A stretch of 64,000 nucleotides of DNA from an uncultured Gemmatimonadaceae bacterium (GCA_963790305.1 CAWBOC010000003.1:122479-186478), one strand, 5' to 3'. Shown: positions 72 to 64,000, counted from the stretch's first letter. Notes: a model not told the origin generated them from the sequence alone. A program made the numbers and translations.

Positions 72-1659
72 TCACGCCAGCCCCATCCCCCACCGCGCCA
101 GGGGCGTCGGCAGCGCGCCGTACGACAGCAGCTCATCGTGGAAGGCGCGCAGGGAGAACATCGCGCCGCGCGCCTCGCGCGCGTCGTCGCGCAGGCGCAG
201 GATCTCACGACGGCCGACCGCGTAGCAGAGCTGATAGGTGGGAAACGCGCAGTAGCGAACGGCCTCCGCGCGTGCGGCGCCCTCCTCGAGGCCGAGCTCG
301 TCACGCAGGATCGCCGAGGCGGTGTCGACCGTCATGCCCTTCGTGTGCAGCGACACGTCGAGAATCACCCGCAGGGCGCGCCACAGCAGGTGGTGCACCT
401 GGAAGAAGCGGGCGGCGGGATCGCTGATGAAGCCCTGCTCGGCCATGAGGTTCTCGCAGTACAGCGCCCAGCCCTCCTGCGACGCCGGACTCGCCAGGAC
501 GCGTCGCACCGGCCGCGGCAGCGTACACGCCGTCACGATCTGGAGATGGTGGCCGGGAATACCCTCGTGCAGCGCCGTGCTGGGCAGCTCGGCGCGGCAG
601 TGCAGCCGCCATGGCTCGTTAGGCTGCGGCAGGGTGACGAAGAAGGTACCACGCGCATCGCCGTCGAAGGCGGCCGGTCCCTGGTAGGCGGCGAACGGGA
701 TGAGGGCGCGAAGGAAGTCGGGCGTCGGCGCGACGACGAGCTCTCCCTCGGGGACGGTGACCAGCCCACGCTCGGCGGTGAAGTCGAGCGCCGCCCGCAT
801 CGCGCTTCGATACTCGTCCACGGCCGTGTCACGGGTCGGCGTGTCCTCGCGCAGGACGCGCACGACGTCGCGCCACGGCGTATTCGGGACGAAGCTCGGC
901 CGCGAGACGCTCGAGCTCGGCAATCGCTTCGGCGCGCAATCGCTCGCCGAAGCGCAGGAGCTCGTCGGCGTTCTCACGGATCATGTGCGCGGTGTGGAGC
1001 TTGAGGTCGAACAGCTCACGCCCCAACCCGAAGTTCCCTTCCTCGGTCGGCTCCAGGAGCGCAAGCGCATCTCCAAAACGGTGAAGCGCATCCACCGCCG
1101 TGTCGCGCGCTTCGGCGAGCGCAATTGGATCGACGGGAAGATTGACCTTCCCGAGCCCATCGCGAAGCAGCGAGACCCCGCCCGCGATCATGGCTCGCGC
1201 CGTATCGAGAAACACGGTCAGCGGCTCGGTCAGCGCCGCGGCGGCCTCGTCGAGAAAACGCGGCATGGCCTGCACCCGCGCCAGGAGCGCCGCCCCGCGA
1301 CGCGCCGGATCGCCAGACTGCCGCGCGAGGAGCAGATGGATGCCGTTCAGTGCATAGAGGAGCGCATGCGTCGGATTGCGTGCGTGCGGCCTCTCGCGCT
1401 CGAGGATCAGCAGGTCATGACGCGCCGCGTGCAGCGTCGCGGTCCGGTCGATCTCGTCGTCGAGGGAGGCGGCCTCGACCTCCTCGAGACTCGCCGTGTA
1501 CGACCGCAGCGCAGCGGCGTACTCGCGCAGCGATGCGGGGTCGAAGCGCGGGAGCTCGGGGTCGAATTCCTGCCGGCCGACGTACGTGCCCTCGACCGGG
1601 TTGATACGCCAACGGAGATCGAGGTACCCCTCGAGAACGTCGGCGAGTGGCTCGCTCAC
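72..1659 (-). pseudogene. DUF885-family protein, one frame break as assembled
   Basis: ORFs 829..1659(-) and 72..977(-) are the N- and C-terminal parts of one DUF885-type protein (the C-part carries HEGIPGHH). They overlap in different frames at 829-977. Confidence 0.75.
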
Positions 1660-2906
1660 GCCCGCGCGGGCTGCCGTTTTTGTTCGCCGATCATCGCGTG
1701 CAGCTCGTCATCGCGGATCACGCGATTCATCCGCTTGGCCGCATCGAAGAGCAGTTGGCAGAGGGCATCGTCGGCGGGATCGTAGCCGTGCTCTTCGAGC
1801 CAGCACTTCACGTTCGAGAGCCCCGAGACGGGCGAGATCTCGATGCGCTGCGCAAGGCCGAAATCCCCGGCGGGCACTCCGGAGTAAATGCGATCAGCGA
1901 GCCAGGCGTGCCCTTTCTTTCGTGCCTTGATGATCGCGGCGGCGTGCACCCCAGTTCCGGTGCGAAAGGCGTCGTCGCCGAGCACGGGGTAGCTGGGCGG
2001 AATCGGGACGCCGCAAGCGCTCGACGCGAGATGCGAGTACTCGGGGAGCTTGCTGAGGTCGTGCCGGTGCGCGCCGAGCAGCTTGAGATTGATCAGCAGG
2101 AGATCCATCTCGGCATTGCCGACACGCTCGCCGATGCCTAACGCGGTCCCATGCACGCGGTCGACCCCCTCCTCGATCGCCGCCAGACAGTTGGCGAGCC
2201 CGAGTCCGCGGTCGCGGTGGCCGTGCCAGTCGAGCTTCACGTCCTCGCCGCTGGGGTCGATGATCTCATCGCGTACGAACCGGACGAGTCGACGCACGCC
2301 ATCGGGCGTCGCGTGCCCAACCGTATCGGCGAGACAGAGCCGCCGGGCGCCCCACCGAATCGCGTTGCCGTAGAGCGCCTTCAGCGTGTCGGGCGCGGCG
2401 CGCGTCGTATCCTCGGTGACGAACATGACCGGCAGCCCCTCACCCACGGCGAACGTCACCGCCTCCTCGCTCACGCGCAACATCTTCTCCAGCGTCCAGT
2501 CCTCGGCGTACTGGCGAATCGGCGAGGAGCCGATGAAGGTCGCCGCCTCGATGGGAATGCCGGCCTCCTGCGAGATGCGCGCAACCGGCTCGACGTCGGA
2601 GATGACCGTTCGGGCCGCACAGTTCGCCTCGAGGTCGAGGCCGGCGGCGGCGATCTCCTTGGCGAGCGCCAGCGTATCGGCGCGGGCGCGTGGTCCGGCG
2701 CCGGGGAGACCGATGTCAGCGGACGCGATCCCGAGGTCGACCATCAGGTGGAGCAGGCGCTTCTTGTCGTCGATGACCGGGTCGGTCACCGACGGGCATT
2801 GCAGCCCGTCTCGCAGCGTCTCGTCGTTGAGCTCGACGTGGCAAGCTCCCCAGTCGAACGGGGCGCCCTGCTGGTTCCAATCGTGGATCAGGTCCTGTTC
2901 GCGCAT
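1656..2906 (-). CDS. 2-isopropylmalate synthase / homocitrate synthase family protein (HMGL-like, short form)
   Basis: Intact 416-aa ORF with LNDETLRDGLQ, HGHRDRGLG and HGTALGIGERVGNAEMD motifs typical of LeuA/NifV-type enzymes. Confidence 0.8.
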   Translation of the reverse strand: MREQDLIHDWNQQGAPFDWGACHVELNDETLRDGLQCPSVTDPVIDDKKRLLHLMVDLGIASADIGLPGAGPRARADTLALAKEIAAAGLDLEANCAARTVISDVEPVARISQEAGIPIEAATFIGSSPIRQYAEDWTLEKMLRVSEEAVTFAVGEGLPVMFVTEDTTRAAPDTLKALYGNAIRWGARRLCLADTVGHATPDGVRRLVRFVRDEIIDPSGEDVKLDWHGHRDRGLGLANCLAAIEEGVDRVHGTALGIGERVGNAEMDLLLINLKLLGAHRHDLSKLPEYSHLASSACGVPIPPSYPVLGDDAFRTGTGVHAAAIIKARKKGHAWLADRIYSGVPAGDFGLAQRIEISPVSGLSNVKCWLEEHGYDPADDALCQLLFDAAKRMNRVIRDDELHAMIGEQKRQPARA

Positions 2907-2911
2907 GGAGA

Positions 2912-3039: not shown

Positions 3040-3043
3040 CTCC

Positions 3044-4233
3044 ATGCTCCGGCAGCTCTGGCACCACCCCGCCCTTCGGCAGGCGCGGCTACAGCTCGCG
3101 TCACGCGACCAGGACATCGTGCTCGAGCAGATCGCGGTGTCGGAAATCGCCGCGCCCACGGGCGAAGAAAATGAGCGGGCGCAGTGGGTGGCCCAGCGGT
3201 TCGAAGCGCTGAAGCTGAGCGACGTACGCATCGACCAAGCGGGCAATGTGATCGGACGACGGCGCGGGAGGACGGATGGCCCCGCGGTGCTCGTATGCGC
3301 ACATCTCGACACTGTCTTCCCGCGTCAGACGCGCGTCAGCGTGGCGCGACTCGGGAACCGCCTCGCTGGACCCGGCATCGGCGACAATGGGCGCGGCGTG
3401 GCGGCAATGCTGGCCCTCGCTACCGCGCTCGACGGCGCGACATTGGTCGACCGAGCGTCCCGTCGATTTCATTGGCACGACCGGTGAGGAAGGCGCCGGC
3501 GATCTCCGCGGCGCGAAGCACCTGTTCGCGCACGAGGGACGCGATGCGGCGGCGGCGGTCATCCTCGACGGCGCGGGGGACGAGCGCATCGTTCATCGTG
3601 CTCTCGCGTCTCGCCGCTACCGACTGACCTTCGAGGGACCGGGCGGGCACAGCTGGACGGCGTTCGGAGTGCCTAACGCCGTGCACGCCGCGGCGGTCGC
3701 GACGGCGCGGCTCGCGCGACTCGTCCTTCCGACGACGCCGCGCACGACGCTGTCGGTCGGACGCATCGGAGGCGGCATCTCCGTGAACTCCATCCCCGAC
3801 CGCGCGTGGCTCGAGGTGGACGCGCGGTCAGCGTCAGCCGGCGATGATCTCGCGCCTCGATCGCGACGTGCGTGAAGCCGCCGCAGCGGGCGCCATGGAG
3901 GAAAACGCGCGGCGGGCCGTGGGCGCGATACCGTTGACGTACACCGTGGAGGTAATCGGCGAGCGACCGGGTGGCGAAACGCCGGTCGATCACCCGCTCG
4001 TGCTCGCCGCCATGGAGGCGACGCGCCTCATCGGTCGGAACCCCGAGCTCGCGATCGCCTCGACCGACGCCAACATCCCGATCAGCCTCGGCATCCCCGC
4101 CGTAGCGATCGGTGCGGGCGGACGTGGCGGGGATGCGCACACGCCCGGGGAGTGGTTCGAGAACACCGAGGGCACTCTTGGGTTGAGTCGGGCGCTGGGT
4201 GTGGTGGTGAATGCGGCAGGGCTGGTCGTGTAG
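3044..4233 (+). pseudogene. M20-family metallopeptidase (peptidase T / deacetylase-like), two frame breaks as assembled
   Basis: ORFs 3044..3487, 3276..3875 and 3844..4233 (+) concatenate into one M20 protein (CAHLDTV, GIGDNGRG, TTGEEGAGDLRGA, GGGISVNSIPD, GGDAHTPGEW). Confidence 0.8.
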
Positions 4234-4350: not shown

Positions 4351-5336
4351 GGGCCCCGCGCACCTCGGAGTGATCCCCGACGGTGACCTCACCTTGCACA
4401 CCCTCGACGTGCACCTCGTCGCCGACCAGCGAATTCCGCAGCACGGAACGGATGATCTTCGACTTCTGTCCAACGAGTGTGTCGCTTGAGCTCCGAGTCC
4501 TCGACGACGGAGCCCGCGCCTAACGTGACATTGGGCCCGATCTTCGACCGTCGGAGCGTGACACCCTCCTCGATGTAGACGGGATCGACGATCGTACACC
4601 CGTCGGTCGCATCCGGACGCTGCGCCCTTCCCTTCTCCAGCATCGCGCGGTTCGTCTCGAGCAGCGTGTCGATCTTGCCGGCGTCGTACCAGCCCTCGAC
4701 GTCGATCACCCGGATCTTCGCGCCCTTGTCGATCATGTACTGGAACGCATCGGTGAGATAGTACTCGCCCTTGTTCTTGGGCTGCTTGAGCACCCACTCG
4801 ATGCCTTCGTAGAGCAGCTTCCAGTTCTTGATGTAGTACAGCCCGATGTTGGCGCGCTTCGAGATCGGCGTCGTCGGCTTCTCGACGATCTTCGTCATGT
4901 TGCCTTGCGTGTCGGTGACGACGACGCCGAAGCGCTGGTAGTCCTCGACCTCCTTCACCCAGATGATGCCGTCGGCGTCGGTCGTCTTGATGACCGAGAG
5001 GTCGGCGTCGAAGATCGTGTCGACGAAGATGATCGAGCACCGGCTGGTCGACGTGGCCGCGCGCGAGCGCGACGGCGCCGGCGGTGCCATCCTGCACCTT
5101 CTGCTCGATGAATACGGCGGGGAAGTCGAACTCCGCGCGCGACGTACTCCTCGACCTTCTCCTTGAGATGGCCGGTGATGTAGATGATCTGCTCGACGTT
5201 GCCGAGCTTCTCGAGATCGTCGAGGATGTACGCCATCACCGGCTTGCCGGCGACCTTGAGCATCGGCTTCGGCGTGATGTGCGTGTGCGGGCCGAAGGCG
5301 CGTGCCCTTCCCCGCCAGCGGAATGATCACTTTCAT
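4340..5336 (-). pseudogene. Sugar-phosphate nucleotidyltransferase (NTP_transferase domain plus left-handed beta-helix C-terminus), about three frame breaks as assembled
   Basis: MKVIIPLAGKGTRLRP (frame of ORF 4389..5735), MLKVAGKPVMAYILDDLEKLGNVEQIIYITGH (ORF 4955..5263), then IIFVDTIFDADL...YYLTDAFQYMIDKGAKIRVIDVEGWYDAGK...GPNVTLGAGSVVEDSEL. The C-terminal 45 codons are in a third frame and end at TAA 4340-4342. Confidence 0.75.
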
Positions 5337-9626: not shown

Positions 9627-10649
9627 TCAATGCGCCCCTTCGCGGATCTGTCCAATGAACACGCTCGTCAGCACGGCGAAAATGAACGCCTGCAAGAATG
9701 CCACGAACAGCTCGAGCATCATGATCGCGAGCGCCATCACGAACGGGCCGCCTGCGACCCACCAGCTACCGAAGGTGAAAATGAGGCCCACCAGCGCAAG
9801 CACGACCACGTGACCCGCGGTCATGTTCGCGAAGAGACGAATCGCCAGCGCAAAGGGCTTGGTGAACTTTCCGATGATCTCGACCGGGGTCATGATCAGC
9901 GTCATCGGCAGCTTCATTCCCAGCGGCATGTCGTGCGGCCAGTAGACGATCGTGTTGATGTACCCCCTGCCTAACGTCCGGATGCCTGCCCACTCGACCA
10001 TCAAGAACGAGAGGATGGCGAGCGTCGCCGTCACCGAGATGTTGCCCGTCGCCGTCGAGCCGTACGGGACGAGGCCGAGCATGTTGGCGAACAGGATGAA
10101 GTAGAAGAGCGTCAGGATGAACGGGACATACCGCTCGCCGTGGTGGCCGACGTTCGGCATGATCACCTCGTTCCGCATGTAGAGCGACACGGCCTCGATC
10201 GCGTTCGGAAAACCCTTCGGCGCCCGGCCCGCTGCCTGGTACCGACGTGCACCGCGACCGGCGAAGAAAAGGGCCACGAAGGTGAGGATCGCGGCGAGCC
10301 AGAGCATGACGACGTGCTTGGTCGGCGAGAGGTCGAGCGTCGAAGCTCGCCAATGTGGATCGGCTCCCACTCCGGCAGGTGGCACTCGCGCGCCTGCCAG
10401 ATCTTCCACGACGCCGGGCACTCCATGTGGTGCGAGTCGCTGATGTGCGGCGTGATGATGTCGACGTTATGCGACGCCTCCGACTCGCCTGCGTGCTGCT
10501 CCTCGGGCGCGTGCCCCTGAATCTCCTGGGCGACCTTGGCCGAGACCATCGAATCGACGTCCGGCCGCGCCTGAGCTTCGTGCTCCTGCGCGAGCAGTGA
10601 GCGAGGCGCTCAGGAGGAGCGCGGCGGCCAGGGAGAGTCCGAATCTCAT
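9627..10649 (-). pseudogene. atpB: F-type ATP synthase subunit a with a long N-terminal extension, two frame breaks as assembled
   Basis: ORF 9627..10421 is the canonical a-subunit core (LAIRLFANMTAGH). ORF 10163..10549 supplies DIITPHISDSHHMECP...LPEWEPIHIG upstream. ORF 10467..10649 supplies a signal-like MRFGLSLAAALLLSAS, with its ATG overlapping the upstream stop (ATGA). Confidence 0.85.
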
Positions 10650-15915: not shown

Positions 15916-16049
15916 GCGTTCCCGCGGGGTCGGGCAAGACGACCTAACGCGTTACGAGGTTGCACGTCGAGACGTCGACAAGGTAGCGCCGGAGGGTGTT
16001 CCACACCGGCGTTCCTACCTACGGCCCCTTTTCTCGACGTGAGGCTCCC

Positions 16050-16751: not shown

Positions 16752-16814
16752 TCGCTCTGTTTCACGCGATGCCCCCGTCGGCCAGGCCGGCGGGGGCATC
16801 GTTTTTTTCATGAC

Positions 16815-18087
16815 CTAACGCGTGAGCGCCGCGAGCATCTTCGGATCGCTACGGATGGTCTCGTCCTCGAGCAGGTCGGGCCGCACCTCCGCGCCGGCGG
16901 CAACGAGCATCGCCACGACCTCATGGTAGCGTTCGGCGGGGAGCCATCGGCTCCTCGCTCCATGCGTGGAGTGCCCAGACCAGCGGCGGTGTGCCCCAGG
17001 TCTCATCCTTCACATTGACGGGCGCGCCATGGCGCAGCAGGAGCCTAACGAGCTCGACGTGGGCGCCGAACGCGGCGACGTGCAGCCCCGTGTGCCCGCG
17101 GCCGAACGCGTCGATGCGAACCTCGGGCTCGACGCCATTCGCCAGGAAGAATTCCACGACCGCGGCGCGGCCGTAGCCGCATGCCATCGAGAAGGCGGTG
17201 CTCACCTGTGCGCTCGTTGTGCCCGGCTTCGGATTGCCGTCGGCGTCGAAGAATGATCGGACCAGATCGAGCCGGCCAACGCCGGCGGCTTCCACGAGAT
17301 CGAGCCGTGCCACCCGGTCGGCGAGGTACGCGGCGGCCTCGGGTTGACCGTTGGCCAGGCACGCATTCACGGCTCCGGCGTCGAGACGAGCGCCGCGACG
17401 CAGGAGTATCTCCATGAGCTCCTGCTGGACGCCGGCTCGCTGCGGATGGACGCTCGTCGCGACGAGGCCGAGCGTCGTCGCCCCGCCGCCGTACATGTCG
17501 GCCTCTGCGTCGACCTCCGCGCCAGCATCGAGGAGCGTGGTCGCGACCGCGACCGCGTTGGTGGGGGTTCGCTGCCGGTAGTTCTCGACGCCATTGGCGC
17601 TAACGTAGTGCAGCAGCGTCGCCCGATGCTCGCGCGTAGACCGAGCGCGGATCAGGTCCGGGTCGTCGCGCAGCAGCCGGGCGAGCGTATCCAGATTGCC
17701 GGCGACGATAGCGTCCGCCGCGGCCTCATAGCTCGCGACCATCGAGCTCGTCGTCGCGAGCGCGTCGAGATGCTTCGCGAGCTTTGGCCAGCTCTCGAAC
17801 CCGTGGGCGCGCGCAATGATGAACTGCGCGTTCGCGAGCTGGCCACCCCGCGATAGCGTGTCGCGAGCGAACTGCTCGAGCTGGTCCGCATAACGAGCGA
17901 TCCCCCTGCGGCTCTCCGCCCACCCGTGGAGGCGGGCGATGGCTTCGATCCACTGCGCCGCCCAGGCGCGAAGCGCGCCCGAATCACCGGATTTGTGGGC
18001 TCGTACCAGGTCCTTCGCGCGCTTGCGGTACTGCTCGAGGCTGGGACGCGGCGGAAGGGGCAGGACATCCTGCGGGTTGGGATACAT
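16815..18087 (-). pseudogene. Ankyrin-repeat protein, one frame break as assembled
   Basis: ORF 16921..18087 has repeated ...TLLHYVSANG..., GHTGLHVAAFGAHVELVRLLLRHGAPVN. The last repeat continues in ORF 16815..17006 (YHEVVAMLVAAGAEV). Confidence 0.75.
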
Positions 18088-25807: not shown

Positions 25808-25890
25808 GGGTAACAATACGATGCTGACGCCCGAGAAGGGAAAGCGGCCTTCAGGCAAAGCGACAATTCTGGAGCTTCGAGCGTGACCCG

Positions 25891-37968: not shown

Positions 37969-37985
37969 CTCCGCGCCGCCAATCG

Positions 37986-43026: not shown

Positions 43027-43033
43027 CTAGACC

Positions 43034-44964: not shown

Positions 44965-44967
44965 GGC

Positions 44968-45396: not shown

Positions 45397-45401
45397 AGGT
45401 A

Positions 45402-45887: not shown

Positions 45888-46070
45888 GGCGCATACCCGC
45901 TGGTGGCACTAAGTTAAGTCGTTATTTAGCAGCTACTTATAATCTTTTTCTAATCTTCTGGCGGGCGTAATGACCGGGCATCGTGCGAGAGGTGCGGCAT
46001 ATCGCGACATGCCAGGCAAAAACGGTCGTTTAGTACGAAAATGGGTTGTCCGCCTGTGAGTCGGTCCTGG

Positions 46071-46559: not shown

Positions 46560-47484
46560 CTACGAGAGCGTCTCGCCACCCATGAGCACCGCCATGATCG
46601 CCTTCTGCACGTGAAGGCGATTCTCGGCCTCATCCCATACGCGGCTCTGTTTGCCCTCGATCACCTCCGCCGCCACCTCCTCGCCACGGTGTGCGGGCAG
46701 GCAATGCAGGAAGATCGCGTCAGAGGCCGCGCGCTTCATGAGCGCCGGGTCCACAATGAACCCGCGGAATGCTTTCGCACGCGTCGCCTGTTCCTCCTCC
46801 TGCCCCATCGACGCCCACACGTCGGTGTTGATGACGTGCGCGCCCTCAGCGGCTTCCTTCGGGTCGCGGACGACGCGTGACCTTCGCGTTGGTACGCGCT
46901 CGCTCGACCAGCTTGGGATCGGGGTCGTAGCCCTGGGGACAGGCGAGCACCAGCTCGAACCCCAGGCGATAGGCGGCATTGATCCACGAGTTCGCCATGT
47001 TGTTGCCGTCGCCAATCCAGGCAATCCGCTTCCCGTCCCACCCGCCGAGGTGCTGCCTAACGGTCAGCAGGTCGGCCAGCACCTGGCAGGGGTGGAGCCA
47101 GTCGGTGAGCCCGTTGATCACCGGGATGTCCGCGTACTTGGCGAGCTCCTCGATCTCGGCGTGGGCGAAGGTGCGGATCATGATCCCGTCGACATAGCGG
47201 GAGAGCACGCGCGCCGTGTCGGCGATCGGCTCCCCACGGCCGAGCTGTACATCGCGAGGAGAGAGAAAGAGGGCGTGCCCGCCGAGCTGCCAGGTGCCCA
47301 CCTCGAAGGAAACGCGTGTGCGCGTGGAAGACTTCATGAAGATCATCGCCAAGGATTTGCCGGCGAGCGGCTTCTTCATGTAGCGGCCCTGCGACATCGT
47401 GTCGGCAAGATCGAAGAGCCGGTGCAACTCCTCGGGAGAGAAATCGGGGATTGCCAGGAAGTCGCGATGCGGGCGGTCGGGCAT
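46560..47484 (-). pseudogene. argF: Ornithine carbamoyltransferase, one frame break as assembled
   Basis: ORF 46846..47484 (FMKSSTRTRVSFEVG, HPCQVLADL) plus ORF 46560..47024 (DVWASMGQEEE, FLHCLPAHRGEEV). Confidence 0.88.
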
Positions 47485-47512: not shown

Positions 47513-47699
47513 CGGAGTTATTACGGCCATAGCCGCGGCGAATGCGGGGAAGTTAGCCAACTCGGGCGGTCGGTCGCGAGAGGGAAGGCGACGCTGTCCG
47601 GCGCGAAGGGAGTCCGACAGGCTCCGGCCCCGCACTTGCGTTAGGTGCAGTGCGCGCCACACGGGTGGCGGCACAAGGGCCATCGACTGCGGGGGACGT

Positions 47700-48511: not shown

Positions 48512-50227
48512 ATGAGCGCCATCGCGCCCTGGCGGGCCCGTATCGAGCGGCTCGGATTTCGAGAGAAGCTCGGGCTCATCCCCTCGGTCGCCGCGGTGGC
48601 GCTGACCGCCATCCTGCTGCTGAACGTCGGCACCGGACTGCTCACCGACCTGCGACAGCACACGATCGAGAACCAGTACTATCCCGCGGTGAGTGCCTCG
48701 CGCGACCTCCAGGCCGAGCTACGCAGCGTGCAGCGCGCGCTTCAGGATGCGGTCACCAGCGGCGACAGTGGCGCGCTGGGCGTGGCCGATTCCCTTCGCA
48801 CCATATTCGGCCGAACCGCCCACGCCGCTCGCGCGCTCCCAGTCGACAGTGCGCTGGCCATGTACTACGCGCGCGCGCGATCGGTGAGCGTGTACATGAT
48901 CCGCAACGGCAAGCGCGACGGCGAGCTGCGCTCGTTTCCCGATCTCACCGAGCGCTACGCAGCCATTCGCGGCGGGTTGGAGGCGACTCGCGCGCAGAAC
49001 GAGCAGGCTATCGCGAGCGCATTCCGCACCACGCGCTGGATTCGCCGAGGGGCGTGGGTCGGCAGCGCGGTCGTGATCGGCATATGCATCCTGCTGCTCG
49101 GTCACCTGTCGGGACTCGTGTCCGTCTCGATTACCGAGCCGGTGAAGGAGGCCGCGCGTGTCGCGGCACGACTCGCCGAGGGCGACGTGACCGTCCGCAT
49201 CGAGGTCACCTCCGAGGACGAGATCGGCGCGCTGCTCAAGTCGATGCAGCGAATGGTCACCTACCTCGAGGAGATGGCCGCCCACGCGGCGTCGCTCTCT
49301 CAGGGCGACGTGACCGTCGAGGTTCGACCGCGCGCGGCGCACGATGCGTTCGGCATCGCGTTCCAGCAGATGGTCCAGTATCTCGGCGACATGTCCCGCG
49401 TCGCCGATCGAATTGCCGAAGGGGACCTCACTGTCCGCGTTCAGCCGCGCACCGATCGCGACGCGTTCGGCCGCGCGTTCGTGTCGATGGTCGGTCGATT
49501 GTCGGAGGCAATGCACGCGGTGCGCGATGGCGCGGAGGCGATCACCACGGCATCGACGGAGGTCGCGGCGTCATCCCGCGATCTGTCGGAGAGCACGGCG
49601 CGCGACGCCGAGCGCATCGAGCGGACAGTCTCGACGCTCGACGACGTGCGTGCGTCGGCGGCTCGAAGCGCCGAGGACAGCGTCGTCATGGAGCAGGTGA
49701 CGCTGCACGCGGCTCGCGAGGCGGTGGAGGTTGGTGGCGCGGTGCGCGAGATGGCCGCAGCGCTCCAGACCATCATTCGTCGTACCGCCATCGTGGCCGA
49801 GCTCGCGTCGGAGACGAGCCTGCTGTCGCTCAACGCATCGATCGAGGCCGCGCGCGCGGCGGATCATGGCCGGGGCTTCGCCGTCATCGCGCAGGAGGTG
49901 CGCGAGCTGGCCGAGCGCAGCGAGCACGCCGCCCGCGAGATCGGTAAGGTTGCGGAATCGAGCGAGCAGATCGCCCAGCGTTCGGACGCACTCCTGTCGA
50001 CGCTGGCCCCGTCAATGCAGCAGTCGACATCGCTCGTGCAGCGAGTCGCCGCCGCGTCGACAGCGCAGGGGACGGAGATCGATCGCGTCACGGGATCCAT
50101 GAACGACGTCGACTCGACGGCGCAGCGGAATGCCGCCGCGGCGCAGCAGCTCGCGGCAACGGCGAGTGAAATGGCCGGCGCGGCGCAGCAGCTACAGGCT
50201 ATGTTGTCGAGGTTTCGGACTGCCTAA
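48512..50227 (+). CDS. Methyl-accepting chemotaxis protein with tandem HAMP units
   Basis: Intact 571-aa ORF with three HAMP-like repeats ([24 protein letters not shown]..., [25 protein letters not shown]..., [25 protein letters not shown]...) and the MCP signalling hairpin ([37 protein letters not shown]). Confidence 0.9.
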
Positions 50228-50360
50228 CTAGGGTTCAGGAGTCAGGAGTCAGGGATCAGGGGGTGTCAGGGTAAAGGTTCGAGGAGAAAGGCCGACGCGA
50301 CTCCTGAAACCTCCACCCTGACACCCCCTGATCCCTGACTCCTGATTCCTGACTCCTTAG
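50228..50360. repeat. About 130-nt palindrome with heptamer-repeat arms (GTCAGGA/GTCAGGG family), copy A
   Basis: CTAGGGTTCAGGAGTCAGGAGTCAGGGATCAGGGGGTGTCAGGGT ... ACCCTGACACCCCCTGATCCCTGACTCCTGATTCCTGACTCCTTAG. It spans from the MCP stop to the stop of the minus-strand lipoprotein gene. Confidence 0.9.
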
Positions 50361-54151: not shown

Positions 54152-55098
54152 CTATGCTCTCGGGTGCGCCTTCCGGTACACCTCCCGCAGCCGCTCCACG
54201 CTGACGTGCGTGTAGATCTGGGTCGTCGAGACCGAGGCGTGCCCGAGCAGCTCCTGCACGGCGCGGAGGTCGGCGCCGGCATCGAGCAGGTGGGTCGCAA
54301 AGGTGTGCCGAAGGGAGTGCACCGAGAGGCCGGCGTCCTCGTCGAGCTCGTCGAGGAAGTGCGTGACGGCATTTTGAATCGCGCGCACCGAGATCCGCTT
54401 CCCGCGTCCGGCTCAGGAAGTAGGCGGTGCGATCGCCGCGGGCGCCTACCTGCCGAAGCAGCTCGTCGCGCTTCGCCTCGTAGTTCCTGAGCGCGAGCTG
54501 CGCGTGATCGCCGACGGGAACGATGCGCTCCTTCCTTCCCTTCCCGCGCACCTTTACCTGCTGCGACACGAGGTCGAGATCGACGCGGTTGATGCCCCGC
54601 AGCTCCGACAGGCGCAGGCCGGTCGAATAGAAGAGCTCGAGCATGGCGAGGTTGCGCACATCCGAGAAGCGGCCCTCCCACGCGCGCGTCTCCGCCATCT
54701 GAAAGAGCAAGCCGATCTGCGCGCGATCGAGATATCCCGGCAGGTGCTTCTCCAGCTTGGGCGACCCGACGCCGCGCGCCGGATTGGCCTCGACCGCCTC
54801 GGTGCGATGCAGGAACCGATAGAACGACCGCACGGCCGACAACGCGCGCGCGATCGAGCGCTTGGAGAGCCGCGCTCTCGTTAGGTGCGCCATGAATCCG
54901 CGAATGGCGAGGCGATCCACCCCGCCCCAGCGTCCATTCGCTGGTGCCGTAGTAGGTGGAGAGAAACGCCACGAATGCGCTCAGGTCGCGCGAGTACGCC
55001 TTGATCGTGTTCGGCGAGACGTCGCGCTCCTTCGCGAGATGGTCCAGGAAGTCGTCGAGCGGACCAGGCACCTGGCTCATCCGGTGCACGGCCGCCAT
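54152..55098 (-). pseudogene. xerC: Tyrosine recombinase XerC/CodV type, about two frame breaks as assembled
   Basis: The head of ORF 53491..55098 (LDDFLDHLAKERDVSPNTIKAYSRDLSAF), ORF 54126..54920 (LELFYSTGLRLSELRGI, VRGKGRKERIVPV) and ORF 54152..54388 ([39 protein letters not shown]). Confidence 0.85.
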
Positions 55099-56554: not shown

Positions 56555-59078
56555 TCAGACCGCCACCGCCTCCTCTTCGCGGGCAACCACGTCCCACTCG
56601 TTGCCGCACTTGAGACATTTGCGGAATTCACCGCGTGCCTTCGTGCTCTTCGACTCCGCGCCCTCGAAGCCGCACTCGGGGCACCGCTCGGCCACCGGGC
56701 GATTCCAGGAGACGAAGTCGCAGTTGGGGTAGTTCGCGCACCCGAAGAAGATCTTCCCGCGGCGGGAGCGGCGCTCGGTGAGATCGCCGCCATCCTTCGG
56801 GCATTTCACGCCAAGCGGGATCGGCCGGGTGTGCTTGCACTCGGGGTAGCGGCTGCAGGCCATGAAGCGACCGTACCGCCCATGCTTGATCAGCATCGGG
56901 GCACCGCACTCTCGACAGACTTCGTTCGTCGGCTCGTCAGGCTTCTTGTCGCCGGCGAGGCGACGGGTGTGCTTGCACTCCGGATAGTTCTCGCAGGCGA
57001 TGAACGGCCCGAAGCGGCCGCTTCGCGCGATGAGTCGGCCGCCATCCTCCGGACAGCGCTCGTTGACCAGATCGCCGAGGTCGTGCGCGTCAGCGATCAT
57101 TTTCTGCGGGTCGGCGGTCTTGAGCGCCGACTCGAAGGGCTTCCAGAACTCCTCGAGCACACGCTGCCAGCCGAGGCTGCCGTCCTCGACCTTGTCGAGC
57201 TCCTCCTCCATCTCCGACGTGAATTTCACGTTGAAGATGTCGGGGAACTGCTTGACCATCACCCGCTCGACCTTCTCACCGAGATCGCTCGGGAAGAAGC
57301 GGCGCTGCTCGAGGCGGGCGTACTGCTTCTCGGTGAGCGTCGAAATGATCGACGCGTAGGTCGACGGACGCCCAATGCCGAGCCGCTCGAGCTCCTTCAC
57401 GAGGCTCGCCTCGCTGAAGCGCGGCGGAGGCTCGGTGAAGTGCTGGTTAGGCACGATCTCGCGCACCGGGAATGCGCTCACCCGTCTCGAGCACCGGGAG
57501 GGGCTGCTCATCCTCGAGCGCTCGCCCCTCCCCTTCCTCGTGCGCTTCGCGATACAGCGCGAGGTAGCCGGAGAACTTGATGACGGAGCCGGTGGAGCGG
57601 AAGTGAAACGACTGCGAACCATCGGCTTCGAGATGGTACTCGACCGTGGTGGTGTCGAACACCGCCGGCGCCATCTGCGATGCCATGAAGCGCTGCCAGA
57701 TCAGCTGGTAGAGCTTGAACTGGTCGGCGTCGAGGTAGCGGCGGATGTGCTCGGGGTGCCGAGTGGGATCGGTGGGGCGCACGGCCTCGTGTGCGTCCTG
57801 TGTATTCGCCTGCTTCGCGTTCCCGTAGAGCCGCGGAGAGTCGGCGAGGAATTCCTTGCCGAACAACACGCGCAGATGATCGCGCGCCTGGCCCGCGGCA
57901 GTCGGAGACACGCGGGTGGAGTCGGTGCGCATGTACGTGATGAGACCGACCGTCTCGTCGCCGAGCTCGATGCCCTCGTAGAGATCCTGCGCCACGCGCA
58001 TCGTGCGCTTCGAGCCGAAGCCGAGCTTCTTCGCCGCTTCCTGCTGAAGGGTGCTGGTCGTGAACGGCGCGGAGGGGTTCTTTCGGCGCTCGCGGCGCTT
58101 TACGTCGGAGACCGGGAAAACGCCGACTGCGCGCTGCGTACTGCGTGCTGCGTGCTGCGAATTCATTTCCCGCTTCGCGATCGCGGTGACGGCATCGACG
58201 ATTCCCTTCGCCGTCTGCTCGTTAGGGATCTCGGGCTTCTTGCCATCGAGGTGGTGCAGCCGCGCGGTGAACTGCTGGCCTTCCTTCTCCAGCTGCGCCT
58301 CGATGCTCCAGTATTCGACGGCCTTGAAGGCCCGGATCTCGCGCTCGCGCTCGACGATCAGGCGGAGGGCCACCGTTTGAACGCGTCCCGCCGAGAGGCC
58401 GGTTTTCACCGTCTTCCACAGGAGGGGCGAGGCCTTGTACCCAACGAGCCGATCGAGCACGCGACGCGCCTGCTGCGCTTCGACCTTCTTCTCGTCGATG
58501 ACGCCTGCGTTGTCGATCGCGTGCTGCACCGCGTCCTTCGTGATCTCGTGGAAGAGCACGCGGCGAATGGGCGCGCCGCCACGGCGGCGAATCTGGTCGG
58601 CGACGTGCCACGCGATCGCTTCGCCTTCGCGATCGGGGTCGGTGGCGAGGAAGATCTCGCGCGCATCCTTGGCCGCGGTCTTGAGATCGGCGAGCGTCTT
58701 CTCCTTCCCCGCGATCGTCACGTACTCGGGGACGAAGCCCGAGTCGATGTCGATGCCAAGCTTCTTCTGCGGCAGGTCGCGGACGTGACCCACCGTGGCC
58801 TTCACTCGATAGGCGCGGCCGAGGTACTTCCCAATGGTCTTGGCTTTGGCGGGTGACTCGACGATGACGAGCGACGCGCCCGACCCCATCACCGAGGGCG
58901 TGTCGTCGACCGCCGGGGGCGTCTTCGCGGTCACAGTCGTCTTTCGACCCGAGCGGCGCGACACGACCTTCGTCGGCGCACCCACGAGGGGCTTCGCGCT
59001 CTTACGCGCCGTCTTCGCGACCTTGGGGGCTTTGGACGCTTTCGCTCGCTTGGGCGCCTTTGTCTTCTTCTCGGCCAT
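56555..59078 (-). pseudogene. topA: DNA topoisomerase I with C-terminal zinc ribbons, one frame break as assembled
   Basis: From MAEKKTKAPK within ORF 57447..59264 (LVIVESPAKAKTIGKYLG, TOPRIM; APFTTSTLQQEA) plus ORF 56555..57622 (FTEPPPRFSEASLVKELERLGIGRPSTYA; repeated CxxC zinc ribbons). The break near 57466 is one extra base in a C/G run. Confidence 0.92.
58127..58161. repeat. Five tandem heptamers (CTGCGNN) inside the topA coding sequence
   Basis: CTGCGCG CTGCGTA CTGCGTG CTGCGTG CTGCGAA on the plus strand. It is translated in frame on the minus strand as ...EMNSQHAARSTQRAVG... Confidence 0.85.
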
Positions 59079-60043: not shown

Positions 60044-61190
60044 GGTTCCTCCGCAACTCGGCGAGCGAGTCGCCACCGAACTTTTCGAGGAACGCCTGCG
60101 CGACCACGAACGCCACCATCGCCTCTGCAATGACGCCCATCGCCGGAACGGCGGTCACATCACTCCGCTCGGCGACCGCCTCGGCCCGGGCGCCGGAATC
60201 CAGATCCACTGTACCTAAAGGACGCATCAGAGTGCTGATCGGCTTCATCGCGACCCTGACGACCAGGGGCTCGCCGGTGGTCATCCCACCCTCCAGCCCG
60301 CCGGCACGATTCGTCACCCGGCGCACATGACCGGTTCGGGGGCTGTCAGCCGCGGGGACGATCTCATCGTGCACGTCCGCCCCAGGGCGCCTGGCCGCTT
60401 CGAAGCCGAGGCCAATCTCCACGCCCTTCACCGCCGGGATGGACATGATCGCGGCGGCCAGCCGCCCGTCGAGCTTGCGGTCCCATGAGACATGAGAGCC
60501 GAGGCCGACAGGGAGTCCCTGGCACACCACCTCGCAGACACCGCCTAACGTGTTTCCTTCCCGCTTCGCCGTGTCAATGCGAGCGATCATCTCCCGCTCG
60601 GCATCCGGGTCCAGCGTGCGGAGCGGCGACGCATCCGCCGCCGCCGCGAGATCGGCGGGGAAATCGTCCGGCCGCCGGGCATCGATACCGCCCAGATGCA
60701 CGACATGGCTGCCGACGCGAACGCCGAATTCGTCGAGCAGTCGCTTGCACACCGCCGCCGCGGCTACGCGCGCGGTCGTCTCGCGGGCGGATGCGCGCTC
60801 GAGGATGTCGCGCGCATCGTCACGGGCATATTTGAGGAGGCCGGTGAGATCGGCGTGTCCTGGGCGCGGCCGCCTGACGGCTCGCCGCCGCAGCTCGGGA
60901 TCCGTTTCCTGCGGCGCTGGGTCCATGATCTCCCGCCACGTCGCCCAATCCCGATTCCGAATGAGCATCGCGACGGGAGAGCCAATGGTCTCGCCGGCGC
61001 GCACTCCGCCGAGGAACTCGACCGCGTCCTGCTCGATCTGCATGCGTCGCCCGCGCCCATATCCATGCTGCCGGCGCGCGAGCTCTGCATTCACGTGCTC
61101 TGCGAGCAGCGGCAGGCCGGCGGGAAGGCCCTCGAGGATGGAGATGAGCGCGGGCCCGTGGGATTCACCGGCAGTCGTGAAACGGAGCAT
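59991..61190 (-). CDS. aroC: Chorismate synthase
   Basis: Intact 399-aa ORF with MLRFTTAGESHGPAL, GRRPGHADL and RSDVTAVPAMGVIAEAM. The 3' end overlaps the aroK start by about 50 nt. Confidence 0.92.
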   Translation of the reverse strand: MLRFTTAGESHGPALISILEGLPAGLPLLAEHVNAELARRQHGYGRGRRMQIEQDAVEFLGGVRAGETIGSPVAMLIRNRDWATWREIMDPAPQETDPELRRRAVRRPRPGHADLTGLLKYARDDARDILERASARETTARVAAAAVCKRLLDEFGVRVGSHVVHLGGIDARRPDDFPADLAAAADASPLRTLDPDAEREMIARIDTAKREGNTLGGVCEVVCQGLPVGLGSHVSWDRKLDGRLAAAIMSIPAVKGVEIGLGFEAARRPGADVHDEIVPAADSPRTGHVRRVTNRAGGLEGGMTTGEPLVVRVAMKPISTLMRPLGTVDLDSGARAEAVAERSDVTAVPAMGVIAEAMVAFVVAQAFLEKFGGDSLAELRRNHDSYVSDVAARMGRQGD

Positions 61191-61205: not shown

Positions 61206-61264
61206 CAGAATGCGGAATGCGGAATGCGGATATGATCACCGCAGTTCCGCATTCCGCATTCCGA
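61206..61264. repeat. Hairpin of the GAATGCG family
   Basis: CAGAATGCGGAATGCGGAATGCGGA-tatgatcaccgcagt-TCCGCATTCCGCATTCCGAG, between the aroC start and the upstream gene's stop. Confidence 0.9.
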
Positions 61265-61295: not shown

Positions 61296-63803
61296 TCAGG
61301 GCACCTGGCAGCTCGCCGTGAGTGCGTTGCTCAGCGCCACGATTATGACGCCGCGCGCCGTCGCGCCGACCAACACCACCTGGCCACCGCGCACTGACGC
61401 CTTGATCGGACCGATGATCGGGTCGCGAACCGGTACGCAACCGACGCGGCGGTATTCCCACGTGTCGTACACTTCGATCTCCGGCTGCAGCGACGCCGAG
61501 AAGGCGAGGCGCTCGGTCGGCAGCACCGAACCGGGAAGGCCCGGGTCACCACCACCATAGTTCAGTGGGTGGAAGTCGAAGCCCGCATTGGTGCCGGAGA
61601 CTTCGAGCAGACCCTGCAAGCGGAGCAGCGGATCTATCAGGTAGACCGAGTCGGCGCGAAGCGCGGCGATCTGGCCGTCGAAATTGATACTGACGCCGAG
61701 GACGCGGGCCGACGTGTTGGCCACGTAGTCGGTGACGTCCATGGCGCGTGAGATTCCGGAGTCCGCTACCGGCGTCGGCAGTACGTAGCCGGGGTGCGAG
61801 TAGTTGCTCCGCTTCATCCCAATGGTGGCGTCGTAACCGATCGCCCGTGCGTTGGTCCCGAGGTCCTGACCCAACACGCGGCCGCCTTCGCCCATGATCG
61901 CGCGGCGGAAGTTTCCTGAGTTCCGCACGAACGTGGTGTCGCGGAACGCGATGTCGTCGATCCGGAAGACGTTCGCGACGAGCGCGGTATCGCCTGTCGC
62001 ATCGGTACCGATTTGCAGGAAGGGCACGAGCAGCGAGTCCGCGTGACCGACAATGGTGCCACTGGCGTCCATCGAGCCAAAGCGCTCGATCTCGATGGTG
62101 TCAGCGCGCCGGTCGCCCTGGCCGCTCGCGTGCTGCCAGAAGAAATGGCTCTGACGGCGGGTGAGGTTCTCCCACCGCAGCGTCCCGTTCTTCTTGTCGA
62201 ACGGCACCGACTGTCCGAGCGTCGGCGACGTCGAGTAGACCACAGTCACCTCGTTGCATGGGGCTCCTGGAGTCGTAGCGCCATTGCAAACCGCCCCGAT
62301 CCACTGCGGGCGATCGCTGAAGTCGTAGCGCGTTCGGACCTGGAGCAGCTGCCCCGTCGTTTCGGACAGCTTGGCCGTGATCGAATAGACAATGATGTTC
62401 GGCAGCGGGTAGCGGTACATCTCCAGCCCGCTGTCATTCGGATCCGCGGGATTCACCCGCACGTAACTGATCGACGTTCCGCCGTTGTTGGCGACGAGAA
62501 TCGTGTCGCCCTGTCCATAGCGCGGCACCGTGACGTCGCCGCGGTCGCGCGGCCAGGCCGCGAGACCCCACGGACGCGAGCCGACGCGTACCGGTGCCTT
62601 GAACGTGGAGTCGCCGAGGTAGAACACCTCGAGCTGATTCCGCGCGATGTTCGAGAGGTAGAGCTTGTCGCTCGCCTGGTGATAGATCCCGTCAGCGACG
62701 AGGCCACCAACCGGCAGCGGTCGCGTGCTACCCGCCACGATTGTCACGGTGTCGACTCGCACCGGGCCCGTGGCTCCACCAACTCGCGCCGAGTCGGAGG
62801 TGCCGGCGGAATTCCGCGCCCAGGCCCTAACGATGACCCGGGTCGGGAACGTCGTGACGTTCAGTCGCATGGTGAACGTGTTGCGCAGCGACGTAATCTG
62901 ACCGTTGGACGTTATCGAGTCCTGCCCGACCGTCGTGCCATCGAGGAGGCGCACGTCGTAGCCGAGCATCGAGATGCCCGCCGGATCGGTCGCCGTCACG
63001 AAAATCGTGTCGCTGACCTCGATACGGTCGTTGAGGCCGAAGTCGACCAGCGGCCGCGTACCCGCGCCGGCAGCCGGGATCACTTGCAGCGTGACCGGTG
63101 AGCCGAGGAAGCGCTGGCGTCCGAGCGAGTCGACGAGGAATGGCTGTAATGTCAGCGGACCCGGAGTGGCGCCCGCGGGAATCGTGAGAGTGTCGATCGC
63201 AGTCCGATCGATGAGGAGCGGATTGCCATACACGATCGAGTCGACGCCGGTCACTGCGCCGGTTGCGATGTAGCCGAGCGAGCGAATCTTGAGCTCACTC
63301 GAGCCGGTGATCGTGATGAGGAGCTGGCGGCCCACGACCGCCGCATCGGCGGCCGTCGGGGAGACGATGCGAACCGTCGGGGGCGCGACGCCGCCCACGG
63401 TGAGCGTCAGCGTGTCGGGCGCCGAGACGTTGCGTGCGCCGTCCGTCGAGGTACCAATGAGGATGATCGCCGTACCCGGCTGAACCGTCGTCGGGATGGC
63501 GAGCGTGTACGGCACCGTAATGCGCGTCTGGTTGACCGTGAAGTTCGTGTCGATCACACCGGTGACGCCGCCGGAGATGAGAACCCGGATCGACTTGATA
63601 CCGAGATTGTCGACCGCGGTCGCCGTGAAGGCAATGGAGCTGTCGTTCGGGGCGTCCAGAGGAGCCAGGGTCAGGCCCGGCGAATCGAGATCACCGAGCG
63701 AGCCCGAGGGCTGCTGCTCGGCGCACGCCGCCATCCCGAGAAGGATGGCGAATGCGCCAAGGGCGACTCCGCGGGTGCGGAGCATGTTCGGCAAGGTCGT
63801 CAT
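61296..63803 (-). CDS. Large lipoprotein with Ig-like repeats and a beta-propeller-like C-terminal region, downstream of a secretin gene
   Basis: Intact 835-aa ORF with lipobox LLGMAAC, several Ig-like stretches of about 90 aa (...IKSIRVLISGG..., ...IRSLGYIATGA..., ...ISMLGYDVRLL...), then LYLSN/ILVANNGG-type blades. Confidence 0.6.
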   Translation of the reverse strand: MTTLPNMLRTRGVALGAFAILLGMAACAEQQPSGSLGDLDSPGLTLAPLDAPNDSSIAFTATAVDNLGIKSIRVLISGGVTGVIDTNFTVNQTRITVPYTLAIPTTVQPGTAIILIGTSTDGARNVSAPDTLTLTVGGVAPPTVRIVSPTAADAAVVGRQLLITITGSSELKIRSLGYIATGAVTGVDSIVYGNPLLIDRTAIDTLTIPAGATPGPLTLQPFLVDSLGRQRFLGSPVTLQVIPAAGAGTRPLVDFGLNDRIEVSDTIFVTATDPAGISMLGYDVRLLDGTTVGQDSITSNGQITSLRNTFTMRLNVTTFPTRVIVRAWARNSAGTSDSARVGGATGPVRVDTVTIVAGSTRPLPVGGLVADGIYHQASDKLYLSNIARNQLEVFYLGDSTFKAPVRVGSRPWGLAAWPRDRGDVTVPRYGQGDTILVANNGGTSISYVRVNPADPNDSGLEMYRYPLPNIIVYSITAKLSETTGQLLQVRTRYDFSDRPQWIGAVCNGATTPGAPCNEVTVVYSTSPTLGQSVPFDKKNGTLRWENLTRRQSHFFWQHASGQGDRRADTIEIERFGSMDASGTIVGHADSLLVPFLQIGTDATGDTALVANVFRIDDIAFRDTTFVRNSGNFRRAIMGEGGRVLGQDLGTNARAIGYDATIGMKRSNYSHPGYVLPTPVADSGISRAMDVTDYVANTSARVLGVSINFDGQIAALRADSVYLIDPLLRLQGLLEVSGTNAGFDFHPLNYGGGDPGLPGSVLPTERLAFSASLQPEIEVYDTWEYRRVGCVPVRDPIIGPIKASVRGGQVVLVGATARGVIIVALSNALTASCQVP

Positions 63804-63821
63804 GGCGTGATCAGGATAGCA

Positions 63822-64000
63822 TCAGCGGCCGTTAGGCGGCGCGATGCTCTCTCCTTCGTCGATGATGTGGGGCGTGACCAGAATCAGCAGGTCGCGCTTC
63901 TCTTCGCGAGTCGTGGTCTGACCGAAGAGCTTTCCAATGAGCGGCAGGTCCACGAGAATCGGGATGCCGACTTTCGAGACCGTCACTTCGGTCACGGTGA
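63822..64000 (-). CDS. Secretin (PilQ/GspD family), C-terminal fragment (partial, starts beyond window end)
   Basis: The minus-strand translation ...TEVTVSKVGIPILVDLPLIGKLFGQTTTREEKRDLLILVTPHIIDEGESIAPPNGR* is the conserved secretin C-terminal motif. Confidence 0.8.
   Translation of the reverse strand, partial: TVTEVTVSKVGIPILVDLPLIGKLFGQTTTREEKRDLLILVTPHIIDEGESIAPPNGR

Follow-up and report, generated by a model that had tools for sequence, protein, structure and literature searches.

A lineage-restricted, hyper-abundant DNA word, CCTAACG, in genomes of the Gemmatimonadaceae

Why should one asymmetric word of seven letters recur along a stretch of GC-rich bacterial DNA, in both orientations and at the cost of rare codons? 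The question is raised by a 64,000-nucleotide window (the whole stretch analysed here) from an uncultured Gemmatimonadaceae bacterium (GCA_963790305.1, CAWBOC010000003.1:122479-186478), in which a sequence-only reading had noticed by eye at least 32 copies of CCTAACG or its reverse complement, CGTTAGG, and had proposed that the word is selected at the DNA level. An exact search of both strands returned exactly 32 copies, every one of them where it had been seen, with the same split on the plus strand of 21 copies as CCTAACG and 11 as CGTTAGG. The hand estimate of 5-10 copies expected by chance turned out to be somewhat high, dinucleotide shuffling of the window giving 3.3 (standard deviation 2.1, maximum 8), and none of 100 shuffles reached 32. 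Genes were called from open frames with high GC at third codon positions, and Pfam scans backed many of the calls. Shuffling of synonymous codons within these genes, which leaves each protein and the codon usage of each gene unchanged, yielded 2.74 ± 1.51 copies (maximum 9 in 1000), and shuffling of codon order yielded 1.6, against 25 copies seen in the called open reading frames (ORFs). The observed count is thus not reproduced by the codon-aware and dinucleotide-aware null models that had been put forward as a check. In an order-3 Markov model, CCTAACG/GCCTAAC and GCCTAACG top the 7-mer and 8-mer rankings of the window.

The word is not confined to this window. Using the window's AroC as query, 80 loci (given L numbers here) were found among GTDB species representatives, all of them Gemmatimonadaceae or Gemmatimonadota metagenome-assembled genomes; the best AroC relative (L001) has 93% protein identity. 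In L003, L009, L010, L022, L024, L034 (as GCCTAAC), L044, and L073 the word is the top de novo 7-mer, with 27 copies in 20 kb in L022 and 16 in 9 kb in L073; L001 has 6. The other AroC loci, about 70 in number, hold 0-2 copies each, mostly none. Copies occur at 0.5 per kb in the window and at 0.3-1.8 per kb in the other carriers. Contigs identified through LeuA behave likewise: those at 97% and 93% identity, 9.3 and 21 kb long, contain 4 and 6 copies, respectively, and three at 85-86% protein identity contain 0, 0, and 1, one of the latter non-carriers belonging to the same assembly as the non-carrier AroC locus L014. A short metagenome contig with 91% GcvT identity (L081) is also a carrier; it was the only carrier contig returned by a GcvT query that included a non-coding N-terminal extension. 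The word was met in four sampled genomic regions and at least five lineages, and since the several regions agree, the word is a property of the whole genome that is restricted to certain lineages. Enrichment outside the window, another proposed check, was therefore found in other regions and in at least five lineages, the word being absent or near-absent in about 70 species.

The relatives also furnish an empirical null. Based on 667 kb of GC-matched DNA from non-carriers, 2.8 copies are expected in the pooled carriers and 129 are present (46x), and the rate in word-free relatives predicts about 1 copy in the window versus the 32 observed. Across all nulls the enrichment over expectation spans 10-46x. 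An origin as a by-product of composition, codon usage, or protein motifs is ruled out by the dinucleotide, synonymous-codon, and carrier/non-carrier nulls.

The base preceding the word in the window is G in 21 of the 32 copies, which bears out the earlier statement of about two-thirds, A in 7, C in 4, and T in none. Flanking positions beyond -1 carry no information in these 32 copies, and among 137 pooled copies, likewise, only positions -1 to +7 are informative. As a formula, the recognised unit is most aptly given as [G>A>C, not T]CCTAAC[G], a bare word without conserved flanks. It is not palindromic, the reverse complement of GCCTAACG being CGTTAGGC. One-off variants are overall 1.5x enriched relative to the non-carrier null, a mild excess expected for decay products. 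Those clearly enriched are changes of the last G (7-21x), CATAACG, CCTAGCG, CCTGACG, and A or C at position -1; the deviations cluster at the first and last positions, and the inner CCTAAC is strict. Only one tandem pair was encountered in any locus, in L022 (19532-19545), where two copies abut as CGTTAGGCGTTAGG. A mobile repeat of the repetitive extragenic palindromic (REP) or miniature inverted-repeat transposable element type was ruled out, as the flanks lack similarity both in the window and in the 137 pooled copies. A signature of the very-short-patch type, namely depletion of C-to-T variants, was also considered and set aside: 0 occurrences were observed against about 7 expected under a first-order Markov model, but only 0.6-0.9 are expected under the non-carrier null, which leaves the comparison powerless. 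A literature search found no paper naming this word, or CCTAAC, as a bacterial motif. It is thus a real and strong hyper-abundant genomic word that is apparently undescribed, including in this phylum.

The word had been reported to occur in all reading frames and to force rare codons, and both statements hold for the frames that can be used. Among 25 coding copies in the window, 8 are read as xCG-TTA-GGx, 7 as xxC-GTT-AGG, 5 as CCT-AAC-Gxx, and 5 as xxC-CTA-ACG; the two frames that contain TAA or TAG occur only as genuine stop codons (four exact copies and two variants; Table 1). Of the stop-codon contexts listed in the sequence-only reading, those at 33302 and 37984 and the variants at 43021 and 50223 are real, the copy at 16814 is intergenic, and that at 25889 is either sense or a stop. 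In a pooled set of 140 copies, 121 (86%) lie in frame within genes, 9 over stop codons, and 10 in intergenic DNA, the last fraction being near the non-coding share of the DNA. The four stop-free frames account for 50, 25, 24, and 22 of the pooled in-frame copies. The most used frame, with 50 of the 140 pooled copies, encodes Ala, Thr, Ser, or Pro followed by Leu-Gly ([ATSP]-Leu-Gly), which indicates that peptide frequency shapes the placement of the word.

The imprint on codons and proteins is considerable. Eight of the 23 TTA codons in the window fall within the word, and TTA codons are tripled in carriers, at 1.69 per 1000 compared with 0.53 in non-carriers. The word encodes 29% of the [ATSP]-Leu-Gly tripeptides of carriers and 0.8% of those of non-carriers; for Pro-Asn-[VADEG] the corresponding values are 52% and 0.9%, and this tripeptide is itself more frequent in carriers (0.78 versus 0.37 per 1000 codons). 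At the conserved Thr-Leu-Gly of AroC, 7 carrier genomes, belonging to four lineages, use TTA for the Leu, and not one of 69 non-carriers does so. Elsewhere in the same protein, word sites coincide with amino acid differences: L003 and L006 have Pro-Asn-Asp where the others have Pro-Ala/Asp/Glu-Asp, and the window and L001 have Ala-Val-Arg where the others have Ala-Val-Thr. A decayed AroC copy is also recognisable, the window having CCT-TTA-GGT where L022, L044, and L073 have CCG-TTA-GGC.

Once present, the sites are retained. Of 30 word sites aligned between sister genomes that share 83-91% of their DNA sequence, 23 are intact in the partner, whereas just 32-51% of all aligned 7-mers are identical; the LeuA region, with 82-85% identity between sisters, keeps 6 of 9. 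Pooled over 82-91% DNA identity, 29 of 39 word sites are kept against about 37% for all 7-mers, which answers the proposed check for conservation at synonymous sites in relatives. Non-carrier relatives use ordinary codons at the corresponding positions. The word sites rest on disfavoured codons and yet persist, which argues for ongoing selection or drive. In toto, the codon-aware nulls, the restriction of TTA to carriers at the AroC Thr-Leu-Gly, and the conservation of sister sites demonstrate that a DNA-level drive or selection writes the word and keeps it genome-wide in some lineages; the earlier claim of selection at the DNA level, independent of frame and against codon preference, is upheld on these grounds.

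The distribution of carriers within the family is patchy. In neighbour-joining trees of AroC and of AroC+TopA+AroK, which are poorly resolved and have star-like deep branches, carriers fall among non-carriers in at least four groups: the window with L001 (group 1), L034 (group 2), L003 with L009 and L024 (group 3), and L010 with L022, L044, and L073 (group 4). The history may have been one origin with many losses or several gains. L036 and L006, which are short loci and sisters of the strong carriers L022 and L003, have 1 copy each, and at the AroC Thr-Leu-Gly sites L036 has CTC where L022 has TTA; the pattern suggests that the trait was gained or lost over roughly 20% AroC divergence. A different 7-mer, GGTGTTA/TAACACC, is abundant in L059 (21 kb around aroC), with 9 copies against 0.27 from the family background (about 30x, p about 5e-10) at positions 1942, 2199, 4499, 4832, 9076, 18066, 18103, 18174, and 20535. 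They lie on both strands, in two reading frames and intergenically, and the core TAAC/GTTA is common to this 7-mer and CCTAACG. GGTGTTA may be a second lineage-specific hyper-abundant word.

Within the window, the word is densest at 19881-26212, where 6.3 kb holds 13 copies (about 2 per kb). Genes of accessory type occupy this region, namely ORF 19881-20708, a PadR regulator, an 866-aa duplicated permease, a beta-lactamase-family protein, and a DUF2306 protein, and the highly conserved hslU, hslV, and atp genes hold 0-1 copies each. A word that is dense in accessory and sparse in conserved genes fits accumulation limited by protein constraint. Spacing is not even; the gaps between the 32 copies look exponential or random (coefficient of variation about 0.9), and no close inverted pairs of the word were found among the window coordinates. 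The earlier remark that no exact copy lies in the lower-GC segment at about 27.7-33.3 kb is correct. About 2.8 copies would be expected in this 5.6 kb at the mean density of the window, so that the gap by itself is weak evidence. The segment encodes an AAA_16/TPR-type ATPase (weak BrxC/BrxD-like match) and an HD/HDOD-domain protein, and may be recently acquired DNA.

Of the four roles that had been suggested for the word (a DNA uptake sequence, a Chi-like or KOPS-like polar signal, a nucleoid-protein site, or a modification motif), behaviour resembling that of DNA uptake sequences fits best with its density, symmetry, lineage restriction, and effect on the proteome. About one copy per kb, both orientations, all frames, a proteome imprint, conserved sites, and lineage specificity make up the signature of DNA uptake sequences, as they also do that of the highly iterated palindrome HIP1. 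The DNA uptake sequences (DUS) of the Neisseriaceae and the uptake signal sequences (USS) of the Pasteurellaceae have densities of about 0.8-0.9 per kb, and a proteome effect of this kind has been reported for USS. Like the word, DUS (GCCGTCTGAA and its dialects) and USS (AAGTGCGGT) are short, non-palindromic, present about once per kb on both strands, in several coding frames as well as intergenic DNA, and common to related species while absent from others; they also shape codon and peptide usage and show some excess at gene ends (PMC2346458). The word copies near gene ends and stops echo the gene-terminus bias described for uptake sequences in the Pasteurellaceae (PMC2346458).

Because the word is asymmetric like DUS and USS, and because an effect of this size demands strongly biased transmission, we favour uptake or self-recognition, and tentatively propose that GCCTAACG is a genome-wide self-tag of the DUS/USS type. 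Cells of carrier lineages would preferentially bind and import fragments bearing the word, using a receptor that is presumably linked to the type IV pilus. Once inside, this DNA would recombine into the chromosome and word-bearing alleles would be over-transmitted, a form of molecular drive, with the word building up, as far as protein function allows, to a density of about one per 0.5-3 kb. Loss of the receptor or of competence in a lineage would be followed by loss of the word through ordinary mutation.

Several points weigh against this proposal. At 7-8 bp the word is shorter than DUS or USS (9-12 bp), it lacks the AT-rich flanks of USS (none in 137 pooled copies), and no Neisseria-type inverted pairs at terminators were found. 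Known DUS and USS are distributed family-wide, whereas the word is patchy and occurs in a different phylum, the Gemmatimonadota; we know of no documented natural transformation in this phylum. No receptor resembling the ComP of Neisseria was identified, and no gene for ComEA, ComEC, or DprA was seen in the 64-kb window. The patchy distribution of carriers, with relatives at 85-86% LeuA protein identity having one copy or none, fits a mobile driver gene, e.g., a methyltransferase, at least equally well. There are also hints of strand bias of the sort that a polar signal would produce: of the 27 coding copies in the window, 19 are on the plus strand whichever way the gene runs (likelihood-ratio p about 0.03, uncorrected), and in shared syntenic genes L009 and L024 favour the sense orientation and L010, L022, and L073 the antisense.

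The alternatives have been weighed against the same observations. It is scarcely conceivable that the word is non-functional, whether as a codon, dinucleotide, or protein-motif by-product, as a short mobile repeat, or as an artefact of assembly. The prevalence of the [ATSP]-Leu-Gly frame and the many 1-nt indels of an imperfect assembly might be cited for it, but the synonymous-codon and dinucleotide nulls account for no more than 2.7 and 3.3 copies, ordinary codons serve for these peptides in non-carriers, flanks are not conserved, and orthologous sites carry the word in independent short-read assemblies from other studies. Another parallel is provided by HIP1 (GCGATCGC) and the alternate HIPs of the cyanobacteria. 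HIP1 is, like the word, hyper-abundant (an 8-mer) at about 1 per kb, found in all frames and at sites conserved between genomes, missing from some lineages, and subject to one-off deviations mostly at the first or last base, and its function is still unresolved (PMC5861425, PMC4390886). A preprint ties HIP1 to transformation efficiency (bioRxiv 2024.09.10.611283). A methyltransferase, possibly orphan and horizontally mobile, might recognise CCTAAC, with either methylation-dependent biased repair or selection for an even supply of methylated sites turning near-sites into the full word. The model is that of Elhai for cyanobacterial HIP1, whose deviations show the same pattern relative to its methyltransferase site (PMC4390886) as do the soft ends and strict inner CCTAAC of the word, and both the density of the word and its enrichment, within the 15-300x reported for HIP1, are consistent with such an origin, as is the conservation of sites between genomes (PMC5861425). 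A mobile methyltransferase gene would also be expected to leave a patchy distribution of an identical word, and this distribution together with the pattern of deviations keeps a methyltransferase-linked mechanism alive. An asymmetric 6-mer with AC at its end is also reminiscent of what MmeI-type, Type III, and BREX methyltransferases recognise. However, all HIPs are palindromes, GC-rich and 6-8 nt long, with cognate methyltransferases, whereas the word is asymmetric and without a known one, and the GmC-directed model of Elhai needs methylation that is readable on both strands. Neither the window nor the loci revealed a methyltransferase or Vsr-like gene, and the literature search found no link of CCTAAC to a bacterial methyltransferase. 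We regard this explanation as unlikely.

A polar role was rejected in its strong, FtsK-orienting (KOPS-like) form. KOPS and other architecture-imparting octamers are, like the word, short, asymmetric, and dispersed along the chromosome, but more than 80-90% of their copies follow the direction of replication and they are far scarcer; here the orientation is 66:34 and the density 0.5 per kb. The 21:11 split has p about 0.11, the 13 orientation runs (15.4 expected) give a non-significant runs test, every locus has mixed orientation, and the pooled ratio of sense to antisense relative to genes is 56:74, an imbalance that comes mostly from the [ATSP]-Leu-Gly frame. The GC skew of the window is too weak to give the direction of replication. 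A moderate polarity of the Chi type stays compatible with the orientation data. In that case a RecBCD/AddAB-type enzyme would read the word on single-stranded DNA and switch from degradation to RecA loading, and the word, selected throughout the core genome, would mark self. Chi (e.g., GCTGGTGG of E. coli) is likewise an asymmetric 5-8-mer, commoner in resident than in foreign DNA and with a possible mild strand bias, Chi itself being skewed towards the leading strand of the replichores. The word is an asymmetric 7-8-mer of sharp specificity, it is the most over-represented of the window and is missing from the low-GC segment, it shows the weak absolute-strand bias already described, and its orientation in syntenic genes is lineage-dependent and loosely tracks GC skew at four-fold sites in most lineages. 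Chi sites are few-fold enriched and ride on preferred codons, whereas the enrichment here is an order of magnitude larger (46x), falls on the rarest codons, and extends to amino acid changes; no significant polarity was seen in the window, and close relatives lack a comparable word, which a universal repair function should show everywhere. RecBCD/AddAB genes were not found in the window. We consider a Chi-like role quite unlikely, and improbable too is a binding site for an abundant, lineage-specific nucleoid-associated or chromosome-organising protein kept at roughly constant density. The high, fairly uniform density in both orientations and the conservation of sites would suit the latter, and a role in chromosome structure has been proposed for HIP1 (PMC5861425), but copies in the window appear to be randomly spaced, a periodicity would not be recognisable within 64 kb, and no candidate protein was found. 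The absence of counterpart words from close relatives and the enrichment on the rarest codons make both of these readings less likely. We are not aware of any nucleoid protein that imposes so strict a 7-8-mer at the expense of rare codons.

Table 1. Word copies, variants, and other features, in window coordinates unless a locus is named; the sign after a gene is its strand.
Feature	Position	Strand	Context
Word copy	617..623	-	Sense, DUF885 gene (-): CCT-AAC-GAG, Pro-Asn-Glu; conserved in L162
Word copy	2137..2143	+	Antisense, LeuA-family gene (-): GCG-TTA-GGC, Ala-Leu-Gly; conserved in L161
Word copy	3672..3678	+	Frame-split M28/M20 peptidase gene (+): CCT-AAC-G (Pro-Asn) by orthology; conserved in L161, L162
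Word copy	4519..4525	+	Antisense, nucleotidyl-transferase gene (-): ACG-TTA-GGC, Thr-Leu-Gly; conserved in L161, L162
Word copy	9970..9976	+	Antisense, ATP synthase subunit a gene (-): ACG-TTA-GGC
Word copy	15943..15949	+	TAA is stop codon of DinB/DUF1572 gene (+)
Word copy	16814..16820	+	Intergenic, convergent genes either side
Word copy	17044..17050	+	Antisense, ankyrin-repeat gene (-): CTC-GTT-AGG, Leu-Val-Arg
Word copy	20096..20102	+	Sense, ORF 19881-20708 (+): CAC-CTA-ACG, His-Leu-Thr
Word copy	20649..20655	+	Sense, ORF 19881-20708 (+): CCT-AAC-GGG, Pro-Asn-Gly
Word copy	21988..21994	+	Sense, 866-aa permease gene (+): CGC-CTA-ACG
Word copy	22901..22907	+	Sense, 866-aa permease gene (+): CCT-AAC-GGC
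Word copy	23388..23394	-	Antisense, 866-aa permease gene (+): GCG-TTA-GGT
Word copy	23584..23590	+	Sense, 866-aa permease gene (+): GCC-CTA-ACG
Word copy	24605..24611	-	Antisense, beta-lactamase-family gene (+): ACG-TTA-GGC
Word copy	25341..25347	+	Antisense, DUF2306 gene (-): TCG-TTA-GGG; 13 nt from gene 3' end
Word copy	25559..25565	+	Antisense, DUF2306 gene (-): GCC-GTT-AGG
Word copy	25889..25895	-	Sense GGC-CTA-ACG in long DUF2306 frame, or TAA stop of upstream 216-codon frame; gene boundary uncertain
Word copy	27703..27709	-	Sense, cytochrome c gene (-): TGC-CTA-ACG
Word copy	33302..33308	+	Complementary TAG is stop codon of ORF 33303-34055 (-)
Word copy	36504..36510	+	Antisense ACG-TTA-GGC, frame-split C-terminal part of gcvT (-); conserved in L081
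Word copy	37984..37990	-	TAA is stop codon of ORF 37986-38393 (-)
Word copy	39116..39122	-	Weakly called ORF 38829-39269 (+), just downstream of TonB-receptor gene
Word copy	44111..44117	+	Antisense, PilX-like minor pilin gene (-): GTC-GTT-AGG
Word copy	44696..44702	+	Antisense, PilW-like prepilin gene (-): ACG-TTA-GGC
Word copy	47056..47062	+	Antisense, carbamoyltransferase gene (-): ACC-GTT-AGG
Word copy	47639..47645	-	Intergenic
Word copy	54879..54885	-	TAA is stop codon of GidA-family (TrmFO-like) gene (-); conserved in L001
Word copy	58220..58226	-	Sense, topA (-): CCT-AAC-GAG; conserved in L001
Word copy	60544..60550	+	Antisense ACG-TTA-GGC at universally conserved Thr-Leu-Gly of AroC (-)
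Word copy	62826..62832	+	Antisense, 841-aa gene (-): ATC-GTT-AGG; conserved in L001
Word copy	63830..63836	-	Sense CCT-AAC-GGC, 8 nt from 3' end of ORF 63822-63998 (-); not conserved in L001
Variant GCCTAACT	43021..43028	+	TAA is stop codon of AraC-type regulator gene
Variant GCCTAACT, (G)CCTAACT	50223..50230	+	TAA ends 599-codon chemoreceptor (MCP) gene
Word-free segment	27710..33301		5.6 kb, GC 0.60 vs 0.66
Type IV pilus minor-pilin operon	43034..46529	-	Two tandem GspH/FimU-like genes, then PilV-, PilW-, PilX-like; context only
Array unit CGCCTCTAG	2920-3030, 14170-14270
Array unit AATGCGG	7772-7800, 52793-52875, 56427-56547, 61209-61262
Array unit AATCTCG	L016 860-990, 7090-7175, 10688-10780
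Array unit CACGTAGAA	L077 2400-2530

Among the genes of the window are those of a housekeeping nature (the ATP synthase operon, leuA-family, gcvT, aroC, aroK, topA, and hslUV), with the PadR regulator and 866-aa permease pair, a TonB receptor, and a chemoreceptor in addition. Pseudopilin and secretin genes had been named as support for an uptake function. The former are real, in the shape of the minor-pilin operon, within which two word copies lie (44111 and 44696) and which is adjoined on the opposite strand by the AraC-type regulator gene (42094-43026); for the latter, no secretin domain turned up in those ORFs that were scanned with Pfam. An operon of this kind belongs to the machinery that would carry an uptake receptor, and is given here as context rather than as a demonstrated part of the system.

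The window and some of the loci also contain intergenic arrays of tandem 7-9-bp units, each array then being repeated in inverted form, which could form long hairpins. Examples lie in the interval that separates aroC from the 841-aa gene and in that separating trmFO from topA, and the units of the arrays differ among Gemmatimonadaceae lineages. These arrays are separate from the dispersed word and may be elements akin to terminators or REP sequences. Several genes are split between frames, at 72-1707 (DUF885), 3035-4233 (M28 peptidase), 35348-37887 (gcvT/cinA-like), 54881-56501 (GidA/TrmFO-like), 56555-59267 (topA), and about 28.3-31.6 kb (AAA_16/TPR), and alignment to L001 shows numerous 1-nt indels within coding regions of the window, mostly outside homopolymers. 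This suggests assembly indel errors or pseudogenisation. A nanopore methylation-error signature of the word was rejected as the source of the frameshifts, since the indel positions do not coincide with the copies.

Few hyper-abundant words have a known or suspected role, namely DUS, USS, Chi, KOPS, and HIP1, and each of these has brought to light a way in which DNA is exchanged or repaired or the chromosome organised. The present word would be a further one; it comes from an uncultured and globally abundant soil phylum, and has an effect that reshapes both codon usage and protein sequence. Close relatives with and without it provide a natural on/off contrast, ideal for locating the responsible gene by comparative genomics. 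We lean towards the view that some soil Gemmatimonadaceae possess a hitherto unrecognised molecular-drive system that has inserted the asymmetric 8-mer into their genomes at about one per kb, and which would be either the first sequence-specific uptake outside the Proteobacteria or an asymmetric counterpart of HIP1 with a mobile driver gene. Were the word an uptake signal, it would point to sequence-selective natural transformation in soil Gemmatimonadota, and would serve as a marker of native versus acquired DNA in their metagenome-assembled genomes; were it linked to methylation, it would bear on the unsettled origin of HIP1. In either case, the recurrence of one word in at least five lineages interspersed with non-carriers, and the possible second word GGTGTTA, would mean that such drivers come and go repeatedly within a single family.

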